Below are positions 4,164 through 48,066 of a stretch of DNA of 64,000 bases, piece after piece. The position numbers were made by a program, and so were the translations under genes. The stretch comes from Campylobacteraceae bacterium (GTDB taxonomy: Bacteria > Campylobacterota > Campylobacteria > Campylobacterales > JALSKU01), in assembly GCA_026993075.1 (NCBI GenBank), contig JALWUQ010000054.1:60676-124675 (forward strand), written 5' to 3'. The first letter of the stretch is position 1. Each line of letters opens with the position of its first letter. The notes under the pieces are model-generated. The model did not search any database and was not told the DNA's origin. It saw only the letters and a list, made by a program, of their open reading frames with translations.

Positions 4164-5432
4164 TTATTCTCCTAATGCTTGAGATAAATCTCCTATCAAA
4201 TCCTTACTATCTTCTAATCCTATACTTAGTCTTATAAGAGATGGATTTATTCCGGCTTTTTTCAATTCTTCGCTTGAAAGCTGTTGATGAGTAGTGCTTG
4301 CTGGATGGGTAATAATTGATTTGCTATCACCTATATTTACAACAATAGTAAATATTTTCGTACCATTTATAACTTTTACAGCTTCATCAAAATCTTCAAC
4401 TTCAAACCCTAAAAGTCCACTACTTAGCCCTTCTTTAAAATATTTTTGAGCTTTTTGGTGCATCAAGTCACTTGTAAGACCAGGATAGAATACTTTTTTA
4501 ACTTTTGAATGTTTTGATAAAAACCTTGCTACTTCGAGTGCATTTTCAGAATGTTTTTTCATTCTTATATTTAAAGTTTCCAATCCTTGAGTCAAAAGCC
4601 AGGAATTAAATGGTGAAGGCGCAGTTCCAATATCTCTTATAAGAGCCAATCTGACTCTTAAAGTAAAAAGTGGGAGTGGGACATCACTATACACGAGTCC
4701 ATGGTAACTCTCATCGGGTTCATTAAAATGATAATACCTTGGATTATCTTTTATAAGTTCGACTAACTTTGCTCTCTCAATAATAATACCGCCAAGAGCA
4801 GTTCCTTGTCCTATTGTATACTTACTAGTACTATGAACAACTATATCTACTCCCCATTTTATTGGGTTAAAAAGTGCTGCACTTGCTACTGTATTATCAC
4901 AAATTGTAATAATTTTATGTTTTGTAGCAATTTGAACTATTTTTTCAATATCCGGTATTGAAATTTGAGGATTTGAAAGAGATTCAAAAATTATAGTTTT
5001 TGTTTTTTCATCAATTAAACTTTCCAAATCTTCTGCATTATCATTTGAAAAAGTCCTAGCTTCAATTCCAAATCTCTTTAGAGTATGCATACAAAGAGTT
5101 ACAGTACCTCCATAAAGCTTATCTGAAATAAGTATATTATCTCCAGATTCTGCAACATTTGCGATAGAATTAAACAGTGCTGCCATTCCGCTAGAAGTAG
5201 CAACCGCACCGGCTCCGCCCTCATAAGCGGCAAACCTTGACTCAAATACATCAGTTGTTGGATTATTTAATCTTGTATAAATTGACCCTAACTCTTTAAG
5301 AGCAAATAAATCTGCCGCTTGTTTAGCGTCTTTAAAAGAATATGCAGTCGTTTGGTATATTGGAGATGCCATTGTTCTCTCACCTTTTTTATTATCATAA
5401 CCATAATGGATTCCAATTGTTTCTTTTTCCAT
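4164..5432 (-). CDS. metY: O-acetylhomoserine sulfhydrylase (PLP-dependent)
   Basis: 422 aa of the Cys/Met-metabolism PLP family. HSTSKYTIGQG carries the PLP lysine and the N-terminus is typical of MetY. Its stop lies 1 nt from the cysK start. Confidence 0.88.
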   Translation of the reverse strand: MEKETIGIHYGYDNKKGERTMASPIYQTTAYSFKDAKQAADLFALKELGSIYTRLNNPTTDVFESRFAAYEGGAGAVATSSGMAALFNSIANVAESGDNILISDKLYGGTVTLCMHTLKRFGIEARTFSNDNAEDLESLIDEKTKTIIFESLSNPQISIPDIEKIVQIATKHKIITICDNTVASAALFNPIKWGVDIVVHSTSKYTIGQGTALGGIIIERAKLVELIKDNPRYYHFNEPDESYHGLVYSDVPLPLFTLRVRLALIRDIGTAPSPFNSWLLTQGLETLNIRMKKHSENALEVARFLSKHSKVKKVFYPGLTSDLMHQKAQKYFKEGLSSGLLGFEVEDFDEAVKVINGTKIFTIVVNIGDSKSIITHPASTTHQQLSSEELKKAGINPSLIRLSIGLEDSKDLIGDLSQALGE

Positions 5433-5581
5433 TTAATAACTCCAATTTAAAAATTAATGAGACACTACACGATATAAACACTCATAATTATAATGATACC
5501 TTATTACTTTTTAAAAGTCAAGTAAACCAGTAGAGATAGTAATATTTATTTTTTCAATGACCTTATAATTGAGATAATTAA

Positions 5582-5932
5582 CAGGTGTAGCGATAAGCCG
5601 GATTTTGTCATTGGATGATTATTCATCTACATCTTTACTTTACAGTAAGATTTTAGCGAAGAGTATCAATATGAGACTAAACCATCTCTTCTTGCTACAG
5701 GTTGGGTTTACATAGCAACTTAAGTTACCTTAAGTTCTGGTGGTCTCTTACACCGCCGTTTCACCGTAACCTGCCCACACTTTTATAGCATGAACTGGCT
5801 GTTTGCTTTCTGTTGCACTATCCCTAAGATTACTCCTGTCGTCTGTTAGACGAAACCTTGTCTCATAATAGCCCGGACTTTCCTCTTGCCCATACTTTTA
5901 GAGTATACACAAGCAATCATCTGCTACACCTA
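5582..5932 (-). ncRNA. rnpB: RNase P RNA, bacterial type A
   Basis: The minus strand contains GAGGAAAGTCCGGGCT, GTGCAACAGAAAGCAAACAGCC, GGTGAAACGGCGGTGTAAGAGACCACC and the 3' block AGATGAATAATCATCCAATGACAAAATCCGGCTTATCGCTACACCT. P1 pairs AGGTGTAGC with GCTACACCT. Confidence 0.93.
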
Positions 5933-20013: not shown

Positions 20014-20090
20014 GGGTTCATAGCTCAGTTGGTTAGAGCTCTCGGCTCATAACCGAGCGGTCCTAGGTTCGAGTCCTAGTGAACCCACCA
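20014..20090 (+). tRNA. tRNA with anticodon CAT (elongator Met, or Ile2 if lysidine-modified); not an initiator
   Basis: Cloverleaf drawn by hand: acceptor GGGTTCA/TGAACCC, D arm GCTC-AGTTGGTTA-GAGC, anticodon arm CTCGG-CTCATAA-CCGAG, T arm CTAGG-TTCGAGT-CCTAG, encoded CCA. A 1-72 G-C pair and only two G-C pairs at the base of the anticodon stem argue against tRNA-fMet. Confidence 0.9.
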
Positions 20091-43461: not shown

Positions 43462-45946
<2,485 letters not shown>

Positions 45947-46000
45947 TAGTATAAAATTTGGTAATTGAATTATACTCTACTATACTTAAATATTTATTAT

Positions 46001-46124
46001 TAACTAACCTTACGCACTATAATGAGCAAAGCTCTCTATAGTGGCAGAAACGCAAAGTCCCTACAACTCCTTGAAGCTTACGAAAAGTAGGACTTTTCGA
46101 GAAAAAAATGCGTAAGATTAGTTA
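46001..46124. repeat. inverted-repeat-bounded structured element, copy A (124 nt)
   Basis: The arms are TAACTAACCTTACGCA and TGCGTAAGATTAGTTA. Internal features are TATAAT at 46018-46023 and a 10-bp hairpin at 46054-46096. It is about 94% identical to copy B. Confidence 0.8.
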
Positions 46125-46343
46125 TTATTTCAGTGAACCACTACACACCTAAAGAGATGGCCGGATGTCACCGCGATTGGTGGCTAGTTTGAGCGTTATA
46201 TACAATATTGTAGCAAATAGACTGAATGTTTATTTGTATAATATATTGACTTCATAATAGTGTTATATTATAATATGACTGAAATTACAAATATTTCCAA
46301 TTCATCAAAAAGATTGTGATAAATTTTAATTATTTTATTGTAT

Positions 46344-46467
46344 TAACTGGTCTTACGCACTATAATGAGCAAAGCTCTCTATTGTGGCAGAAGCTCAAAG
46401 TCCCTACAACTCCTTGAAGCTTACGAAAAGTAGGACTTTTCGAGAAAAAAGTGCGTAAGATCAGTTA
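46344..46467. repeat. inverted-repeat-bounded structured element, copy B (124 nt)
   Basis: The arms are TAACTGGTCTTACGCAC and GTGCGTAAGATCAGTTA. It has the same orientation and the same internal hairpin (46397-46439) as copy A, with 8 mismatches in 124. Confidence 0.8.
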
Positions 46468-46503
46468 GCTGACTGACATATAAAAATAATATTTTATTAT
46501 AAA

Positions 46504-46771
46504 ATCTGACCTTACGCATTAAACACATATCTGAGCAAAAAGAGAAAGTGTCATATGCGAGGCAGATTTTTAAAAGCTTAGCCAAAGCTAAGGTAAAAAA
46601 ATCTAACGAAGTCAGATGATACTTTATCTTTTTGCCCGAAGGGTGGTATAATTTGCTCACAATTGCGTCGTTAGTAAGATTTGAAGCTACTAGTAGCTCC
46701 TGCATCTTACTGCCTATCACTTGAGAGTAACTTATACCACTCAGATATGTGTTTAATGCGTAAGGTCAGAT
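46504..46771. repeat. inverted-repeat-bounded structured element, copy C (268 nt, perfect 32-bp arms)
   Basis: ATCTGACCTTACGCATTAAACACATATCTGAG (46504-46535) is the exact reverse complement of 46740-46771. It shares the core CTTACGCA and the blocks TGAGCAAA, GGCAGA and AAGCTTA with A and B. It contains TGGTATAAT at 46644-46652. Confidence 0.8.
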
Positions 46772-46807
46772 AAAATTTTGTAAAATATTAAAAAGGAGTA
46801 AAATGCC

Positions 46808-47938
46808 ATGTTATCTTTTAAAGAAAGAGCTATCTCATTACTGAAAAAAGCCGATGTTAAAATAAATGGAGACAGGCCTTGGGATATTCAAGTATATAAT
46901 GACAAGCTATATGAACGCACTTTGCTTGGTGGTACTATCGCTTTTGGAGAAGCATATATGGATGGATGGTGGAGTGCAGAAAAACTGGATCAATTTTTTG
47001 CGAAAATTTTGGGTGCTTACTTAGACGAAGAGCTGAAATCCCCTATTTTATTATTTTATTATCTTAAATCTGCCTTGTTTAATCCGCAAACAGAGAAAAA
47101 AGCATTCAAAGTCGGAGAAGTACATTATGATATTGGTAATGATTTATATTCAAAAATGCTTGATAAAAGGATGGTTTATACCTGTGGATACTGGGATGGC
47201 TTTCAAGATATTCCACCAGCATCCAATCTCGATGAAGCTCAAGAAAATAAATTGGAAATAATATGCAGGAAAATAGGACTTAAAAAAGGTGACAATGTTT
47301 TAGATATAGGCTGTGGCTGGGGAAGTTTCATAAGATATGCGGCAGAAAAGTATCAAGCAAACTGTGTAGGAATTTCTGTATCTAAAAAACAAGTTGATTA
47401 TGGAAATAAATCAAAAGGTGATTTGTCAATAGAATATAGATTGCAAGATTACAGAGATATTGATGAAAAGTTTGATCATATTGTATCTGTTGGAATGTTT
47501 GAACATGTTGGATATAAAAATTATAAAACTTATATGGAAGTTGTCAATAAAAATCTCAAAGATGATGGTCTTTTTTTGCTACATACCATAGGATGCAATA
47601 TTAGCACAACTGCAACAGATCCGTGGATAAATAAATATATTTTTCCAAATTCAATGCTCCCTTCTGCTGCACAAATTTCAAAATCTGTTGAAAATTTATT
47701 TGTTATTGAGGATTGGCATAATTTTGGGATAAACTATGATCATACCTTGATGTCTTGGTATAATAATTTCAAAAAATATTGGCCTGATATAAAAGGTCAT
47801 TATAATGAGAGATTTTATAAAATGTGGGAATTTTATCTTTTATCATCAGCTGCAACATTTCGTATAAGAAGAAACCAGGTTTGGCAAATAGTTTTATCAA
47901 AGCACGGCATAAAAGACGGATACAAAAGGATTGTATAA
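46808..47938 (+). CDS. cfa: cyclopropane-fatty-acyl-phospholipid synthase
   Basis: 376 aa. SAM motif VLDIGCGWG and HYDIGNDLY are present, with a typical CFA synthase C-terminus. SD AAGGAGT lies at 46793-46799. Confidence 0.92.
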   Translation: MLSFKERAISLLKKADVKINGDRPWDIQVYNDKLYERTLLGGTIAFGEAYMDGWWSAEKLDQFFAKILGAYLDEELKSPILLFYYLKSALFNPQTEKKAFKVGEVHYDIGNDLYSKMLDKRMVYTCGYWDGFQDIPPASNLDEAQENKLEIICRKIGLKKGDNVLDIGCGWGSFIRYAAEKYQANCVGISVSKKQVDYGNKSKGDLSIEYRLQDYRDIDEKFDHIVSVGMFEHVGYKNYKTYMEVVNKNLKDDGLFLLHTIGCNISTTATDPWINKYIFPNSMLPSAAQISKSVENLFVIEDWHNFGINYDHTLMSWYNNFKKYWPDIKGHYNERFYKMWEFYLLSSAATFRIRRNQVWQIVLSKHGIKDGYKRIV

Positions 47939-48066
47939 TTCCTGCTTAAATAAAAAATCATTTTTTGCAGTACTCTTTAAATCCATATAAGTGCATAAGA
48001 TTTGGTTAAAATATGAATTATTAAGTAAATTTTAGATATACTCTCGCGAAAATAATTCAAGTTTAA

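Follow-up and report, generated by a model that had tools for sequence, protein, structure and literature searches.

A probable new MITE family inserted upstream of cfa in an uncultured Campylobacterales lineage

The window analyzed here is a 64-kb stretch of DNA (64,000 nucleotides) with a GC content of 30%, from an organism whose proteins have their nearest named relatives in Epsilonproteobacteria and Sulfurospirillaceae MAGs. Within it, cfa, which encodes a cyclopropane-fatty-acyl-phospholipid synthase, is separated from the divergent thiC gene, which is preceded by a TPP riboswitch, by a thiC-cfa spacer of 950 nt that contains three elements, here called A, B and C (Table 1). In E. coli, cfa is a membrane-stress gene under post-transcriptional regulation. 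An Rfam search of the whole window at the gathering threshold returned only the thiC TPP riboswitch, an RNase P RNA (class A, 5578-5932, minus strand, 243 bits) and one tRNA (20014-20087, plus strand), and a search over 45000-48000 with E-values of up to 10 returned only the riboswitch, with no family for C.

Table 1 Features of the thiC-cfa region and the second full copy of the element
Feature	Position	Strand	Basis or remark
thiC, divergent upstream gene	43989-45857		
TPP riboswitch before thiC	45850-45942	-	Rfam
Element A, 118 bp, C-type termini	46004-46121	.	flanks TTATTAA/TTATTAT (45997-46003, 46122-46128)
Element B, 118 bp	46347-46464	.	in L015/L016/L018/L019, not L020
ATAAAAT, left copy of 7-bp target-site duplication	46499-46505	.	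single ATAAAAT in relatives
Element C proper, 264-bp non-autonomous MITE-like transposable element	46506-46769	.	empty sites, second copy
Left terminal inverted repeat CTGACCTTACGCATTAAACACATATCTGAG, 30 bp	46506-46535	+	30/30 complementary to 46740-46769
Hairpin module 1, loop motifs TCGTTAG and CTGCCT	46535-46635	-	covariance-model score 88.6 bits, minus strand
CCCGAAGGG mini-hairpin at symmetry centre, C(UUCG)G on minus strand	46635-46643	.	present in L021, not in the L009 relative
Hairpin module 2, loop motifs TCGTTAG and CTGCCT	46643-46740	+	covariance-model score 98.7 bits, plus strand
Extended -10 TGGTATAAT facing cfa, predicted promoter	46644-46652	+	conserved in L021/L024
Nested hairpin GTAAGAT...ATCTTAC	46674-46710		
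14-nt palindrome AGCTACTAGTAGCT	46685-46698		
Right terminal inverted repeat, 30 bp	46740-46769	-	start point of short-read contigs L004-L006
ATAAAAT, right copy of 7-bp target-site duplication	46770-46776	.	single ATAAAAT in relatives
cfa Shine-Dalgarno AAGGAG (46793-46798) and ATG (46808)	46793-46810	+	
cfa, cyclopropane-fatty-acyl-phospholipid synthase	46808-47938		Pfam CMAS, E 1e-84
Second full copy of C-type element	L021 767-1023		

Element C had been described in an initial annotation of the sequence as a unit bracketed by a 32-bp inverted repeat (46504-46535 and 46740-46771), and the two segments are indeed exact reverse complements over their full length, a match found in 0 of 100 shuffles. 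The outer 'AT' of each belongs to the duplicated target and is self-complementary by chance, leaving true arms of 30 bp. The flanking TAAAA that had been put forward as a possible target-site duplication does mark one, although the true repeat is longer, a perfect 7-bp ATAAAAT. Perfect arms and duplicated target together confirm C as a discrete unit, and at 264 bp it has no space for a transposase gene. The first 13 nt of the left arm are common to A and B. The right arm ends about 37 nt upstream of the cfa ATG, and the internal motifs (TGGTATAAT, CCCGAAGGG, GTAAGAT...ATCTTAC and AGCTACTAGTAGCT) all lie where they had been placed; the one figure that needs correction is the distance of 37 nt given for the extended -10, which is actually 156 nt from the ATG.

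Internally, C has two-fold symmetry, running from a 30-nt arm through a reverse hairpin module (~100 nt), the centre and a forward module (~100 nt) to the second arm, and is predicted to fold into a closing stem of 30-40 bp with two independent long stem-loops. Folding, which had been proposed as a check, gave -121.5 and -118.6 kcal/mol for the two strands as RNA (z about -13.8 and -13.6 against shuffles) and -72.8 as DNA (z -14.7), so that stability is about equal on both strands, as DNA or RNA. Across five module instances, 29 of the 35 predicted pairs are kept by changes on both sides, and the internal-loop motifs TCGTTA(G) and (C)TGCCT are invariant. Because G-U pairs in the module stems are not in excess over A-C mismatches, constraint at the RNA level and at the DNA level are not separable here. 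A covariance model of the hairpin module, run over 148 kb, matched its own training instances only.

The spacer was then compared with that of near relatives, defined as contigs of the three other alleles in the 90% cluster of the Cfa protein. Gene order in these is identical to the window (MCP, PEMT, thiC, cfa, valS, mlaA, mlaC), and their cfa and thiC genes have 95-96% nucleotide identity to those of the window. Spacer length is ~558 nt in L015, L016 and L019, the same in L018 apart from an N-gap artefact, and 405 nt in L020. By spacer alignment, L020 carries none of the elements, the L015 group carries B only, and the window (with L001) carries A, B and C. C is absent from L015, L016, L017, L018, L019 and L020, all with a precise empty site, and ATAAAAT is found there twice in the window and once in L015, L018, L019 and L020. 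The window reads ATTATAAAAT-(264 bp)-ATAAAATTTTGTAAAATATT at this site, L015 reads ATTATAAAATATTAAAAAATATT and L020 reads ATTATAAAATTTTATAAAATATT; at the junctions, ATTATAAAAT is followed directly by ATTAAAAAATATTAAAAAGGAG or TTTATAAAATATT in the relatives and by CTGACC...(264 bp)...GGTCAG and then ATAAAATTTTGTAAAATATTAAAAAGGAG in the window. In syntenic relatives at a greater distance, whose Cfa is 77-78% identical, the spacer measures only 236 and 310 nt and is free of elements, and C is missing from each of the eight related cfa spacers examined. Contigs that encode an identical Cfa have an upstream sequence that is either identical or cut at the arm, and are uninformative on C.

The initial annotation had suggested such an alignment, naming a precise empty site with unchanged cfa expression as the outcome that would imply a passive MITE insertion, and the alignment gives the precise empty site, with C absent as a unit. 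Since the relatives keep the empty site with a single ATAAAAT, C is an insertion with a 7-bp target duplication and does not belong to the original leader of cfa. High stability of the fold (z about -14) adjoining the ribosome-binding site, with stems that covary among module instances, would also be expected of a native conserved cis-regulatory RNA of cfa, such as a riboswitch- or thermosensor-like leader. That origin is exceedingly improbable: it is contradicted by the absence of C in all near and distant syntenic relatives, by the target duplication that flanks C, by a copy in opposite orientation at the unrelated mreC-carB locus and by zero matching Rfam families even at the relaxed E-value.

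The mreC-carB copy was the one locus with both arms found by an exact-match scan of metagenomes. It is 257 nt long in L021 (identical in L024), 97.7% identical to C and opposite in orientation, and its arms again pair over 30 of 30 positions. MreC, normally 249 residues, has 251 in L021, where its last six codons and stop lie inside the element arm. The flanking TTGTAA is duplicated, which makes a 6-bp repeat there versus 7 bp at cfa, and subtracting the element and one TTGTAA copy from L021 restores a normal 249-codon mreC. Empty sites are seen in L027 (mreC 93.6% identical) and L023 (77%), in which the two genes are 13-15 nt apart, and L022 (94.9%) holds a half element of 119 nt, in which the left arm and one hairpin module are joined directly to that same right flank. 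Sequencing runs SRR7968105 and SRR13622959 contain both the L021-type MreC and the exact Cfa of the window; hence, the window organism very probably carries both the cfa-site and the mreC-carB copies. A direct origin of C from the mreC-carB copy was rejected, given that both mreC-site copies miss 7 nt, including CTGCCT, that C retains, and a further source copy must therefore exist or have existed.

When 185,579 species-representative genomes were scanned for an exact 20-mer, there was a single match, a solo end (L007) in the spacer that separates the genes for a Fur-family protein and a cytochrome c peroxidase in a Campylobacteraceae MAG. It is identical to the first 25 nt of the left arm of C and similar over ~45 nt, and no partner arm was found for it. 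C-type sequences are thus present at multiple unrelated loci, namely cfa, mreC-carB (full in L021/L024, half in L022) and the fur-like/ccp spacer (L007). The copy number seen is low: the C type is represented by a full copy at two loci, a single half copy and a single solo end, and the exact-match scans of genomes and metagenomes yielded one locus each.

The arms of L021/L024 differ from those of C by one substitution, C to T at arm position 21, which is mirrored in the partner arm (L021 787 and 1003). The ancestral C is kept in the L022 half copy (3760), in the window copy and in the L007 end, so the double change arose in place. The chance of a mirrored change among six substitutions is ~0.005 by a rough estimate. 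This suggests that either pairing is under selection or a templated (quasi-palindrome) correction took place within the palindrome.

We also considered whether the inverted repeat could be an assembly artefact or a chimeric join. Short-read contigs do break at the arm, and at both loci the 30-bp arm is the exact point where k-mer assemblies terminate (the starts of L004-L006 and the ends of L025-L026). The L018 scaffold also has an N-gap artefact in the spacer, at about 4470-4600, where duplicated flanks inflate the apparent spacer length to 714 nt. An artefactual origin is nevertheless of negligible probability, given that three independent assemblies (the window, L001 and L002) agree exactly on C and both of its junctions, and that L021 and L024, assembled by different sources, agree exactly on the second copy. 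On the practical side, perfect 30-bp arms at two copies per genome break short-read assemblies.

A further possibility is that C is itself a gene, encoding either a small RNA with its own promoter or a small protein from a minus-strand frame. One frame on the minus strand of C is stop-free across both full copies (86 and 85 codons), an ATG-initiated open reading frame has 94 codons in C, where it exits through the left arm into flanking DNA, and 69 in L021, and there are extended -10 motifs inside the element. The two substitutions in the common reading frame are both non-synonymous (V/L and M/I), however, the frame is lost in the diverged L009 relative described below (longest frame 49 codons), a Pfam search of the reading frame of C gave no match, and there is no terminator-like site besides the central mini-hairpin. 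Taken together, this makes a gene very unlikely.

A, B and C have common termini, CTRRYCTTACGCA...TGCGTAAGRYYAG. Across the 64 kb, there are six copies of the core CTTACGCA against 0.6 expected, each at one of the six element ends, and a looser search of the window with a 16-mer of the termini, allowing 3 mismatches, found nothing beyond these six. The earlier proposal that the three form one family is borne out by these termini, which are common to all three and in the 64-kb window lie solely at these elements. Element A is missing from all near relatives, which have a matching empty site, and is flanked by a 7-bp repeat. It is 93% identical to B of the window and 85-87% identical to B of L015/L018, which suggests from sequence identity that A is a local copy made after the lineages split. 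Element A is positioned upstream of the riboswitch and the likely promoter of thiC, at a distance of ~25 nt.

Element B showed no recognizable target duplication and no clean empty site. In L015 it lies at 4811-4927, and L020 has ~24 unrelated nt at that place (about 4870-4900). We rejected the idea that B of the window is not orthologous to B of L015: the two are 84.5% identical, and the adjoining spacer is equally diverged at 83.8%. Just to the right of B is a near-palindrome, CAGTTAGCTGACTG (46462-46475), which corresponds to CAGTTAGCTAACTG in L020 (about 4905-4920) and TTAGTTAACTAA in L011 (about 4924-4940). An interpretation of CAGTTAGCTAACTG in L020 as abutting element tips was also rejected. 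A similar palindrome occurs in L011, a distant relative free of elements, so the near-palindrome is native sequence, and it could be an operator upstream of cfa. A further block at 46150-46200, richer in GC than the AT-rich spacer around it, contains a small hairpin CACCGCGATTGGTGG at 46169-46183; all near relatives retain this block, with substitutions, and Rfam gave no match for it.

A more diverged relative of C is found in the genome of the relative with a 78% identical Cfa (L009/L010, 3205-3476). This element, 272 nt long, is flanked on one side by a hypE-like gene and on the other by an ABC ATPase gene, the last 30 nt of which are inside the left arm. In architecture it matches C, with a closing stem, two hairpins and homologous modules, and its 34-bp closing stem (TAAGCACCTAACCAG...) is unrelated in sequence to the termini of C. 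No target duplication was recognizable at this element. Modules in common and termini not in common are the opposite of what simple recognition of the ends by a transposase predicts. One reading is that these elements belong to a wider class, as yet undescribed, whose central functional part is the hairpin modules and not the termini. The invariant loops, the 29 of 35 covarying pairs, the conservation in L009 and the mirrored arm substitution in L021 would all be consistent with it, and we regard it as unlikely on balance. If it held, the modules would possibly be structure-specific sites for a recombinase acting on folded single-stranded DNA, or alternatively a mobile cassette of structured RNA and promoter that rewires neighbours such as cfa and carB. 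Were the conserved modules recognition structures, the family could indicate an unusual transposition mechanism.

As to the effect on cfa, C does carry a canonical extended -10 directed toward the gene, as had been claimed. In L021/L024 the motif is present on both arms of module 2, with one facing carB. Because carB originally lay 13-15 nt behind mreC, it would otherwise be exposed to polarity from the insertion, and the retention of a -10 facing carB is circumstantial support for a predicted outward promoter. The motif occurs 21 times per 64 kb, however, so that ~0.09 are expected per element. At the cfa site, the target ATAAAAT overlaps TATAAAAT, the likeliest native -10, which is ~30 nt upstream of the Shine-Dalgarno sequence in relatives. 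The insertion would thereby have duplicated this -10, and a transcript from the left copy would carry almost the whole element.

Three types of cfa leader can be predicted from these sites. The left -10 copy (46498-46505) would start transcription inside the left arm and give a highly structured leader of ~300 nt, the internal TGGTATAAT would give a leader of ~150 nt with the right arm only, and the right copy with the neighbouring TAAAAT (46771-46786) would give a short leader. Transcripts begun upstream of C would include both arms, in agreement with the initial annotation. Further upstream, a near-consensus sigma-70-type promoter, TTGACT-17-TATAAT (46246-46274, plus strand, 11/12 matches), points toward cfa. 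All near relatives conserve it, and its distance to cfa is ~170 nt in L020 and 530 nt in the window. This may be the native cfa promoter or the driver of an unannotated transcript, and a transcript from it could read through B and C. Predicted accessibility of the Shine-Dalgarno sequence and ATG is 0.50-0.65, about equal for all leaders and for the element-free relatives. Occlusion of the ribosome-binding site was therefore set aside as a regulatory mechanism, and any effect on cfa would have to act via promoter strength or RNA processing and stability.

These predictions bear on the proposal that C is a co-opted cassette, in which the internal -10 drives cfa and RNase III cuts read-through transcripts with both arms, giving two cfa isoforms. 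Several observations agree with it: TGGTATAAT faces cfa, the extended -10 is conserved in the second copy and faces the downstream carB, the insertion duplicated the likely native -10, and every contig with this Cfa allele has C. There is also the precedent of Correia elements, which act as sources of promoters and, once transcribed, as substrates of RNase III (PMC2649163). The proposal nonetheless seems doubtful as it stands, given that chance alone supplies ~0.09 TGNTATAAT per element, which makes the motif by itself weak, that predicted accessibility is equal for all leaders, that close relatives do without C, and that equal folding on both strands with no G-U excess gives no indication of RNA-level constraint on the cfa sense strand. 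Presence of the same element at the unrelated mreC-carB locus indicates that C is not a cfa-specific device. Co-option is, however, compatible with an origin of C as a MITE.

We conclude with high confidence that C is a MITE of a new family, recently inserted in one uncultured Campylobacterales lineage. It fits the definition of bacterial MITEs (Delihas 2011, PMC3184786) in that it has terminal inverted repeats and flanking direct repeats, encodes no transposase, is smaller than ~400 bp and forms a long, stable stem-loop. The element entered AT-rich sequence in the promoter region of cfa, 31 nt before its ribosome-binding site, and duplicated the 7 bp ATAAAAT there, with the transposition machinery presumably recognizing the arms and hairpin modules. 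Probable side effects are that cfa is separated from its upstream region, that an extended -10 is placed 156 nt upstream of the cfa ATG and that any transcript begun further upstream would contain a duplex of 30-40 bp. Searches for a parent gave null results: the termini, as a guide to a cognate transposase or autonomous element, occur nowhere else in the window or in 232 kb in total (window included), and neither C nor A had a match among plasmids by distant BLAST. A scan of viral contigs with an 18-mer from the arm was negative. A literature search on MITEs in Arcobacter found nothing relevant.

The C family would add previously undescribed MITEs of uncultured Campylobacterales with clean occupied, empty and half-deleted alleles. 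MITEs upstream of genes with long hairpins, promoters and compensatory changes are already well known from Correia elements and bcr1. Less ordinary are the conserved two-module architecture, which recurs in an element with other termini, and the mirroring in place of a substitution in the arms. The insertions at cfa and mreC-carB amount to a natural experiment on how a structured, promoter-bearing element may rewire adjacent genes.

Elements derived from IS200/IS605 and associated with palindromes have subterminal hairpins, no terminal inverted repeats and no target duplication, and C, with perfect 30-bp terminal inverted repeats and a 7-bp duplication, does not belong with them. Tn5 makes 9-bp duplications, whereas the C family has duplications of 6-7 bp, and no IS4-type transposase was seen. 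The termini of C, CTGAC-CTTAC(A/G)CA, do resemble the Tn5 outside end CTGACTCTTATACAC over ~14 nt with one gap, the outside end of Tn5/IS50 being CTGACTCTTATACACAAGT (PMC3347997, PMC2566895); this short resemblance to an IS4/Tn5-type end is only a lead and not a classification. Like bacterial MITEs in general (PMC3184786), C is found between genes or at their ends and varies in presence among related strains, but it differs from them in its low observed copy number and in that no parent insertion sequence was found.

The two closest parallels are bcr1 and the Correia elements. bcr1, from the Bacillus cereus group (Firmicutes), is ~155 bp long, has 5-bp direct repeats, is transcribed and has a cruciform-like fold with two independent stem-loops kept by compensatory changes (PMC3184786). 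C is likewise a small mobile repeat with short direct-repeat flanks and two compensated stem-loops, although it is 264 bp long with perfect 30-bp arms that close the stem-loops, and no sequence relationship is expected. Correia elements (CREE/NEMIS) are 69-157 bp long, have conserved ends of their own and an IHF site, and are present in about 120-250 copies per genome; they create promoters, and RNase III cleaves their hairpins in transcripts such as that of mtrCDE (PMC2649163). C differs from these in its length of 264 bp, in its ends (CTGACCTTACGCA...), which are unrelated to those of Correia elements, in the duplication of 6-7 bp and in its two large internal hairpins, so that in ends, core and length it falls outside the Correia family and would at most be a functional analogue. 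By analogy, both are inverted-repeat elements located 5' of genes, with a promoter and duplex that are predicted in the case of C, and C could alter cfa expression as Correia elements do for their neighbours in Neisseria.
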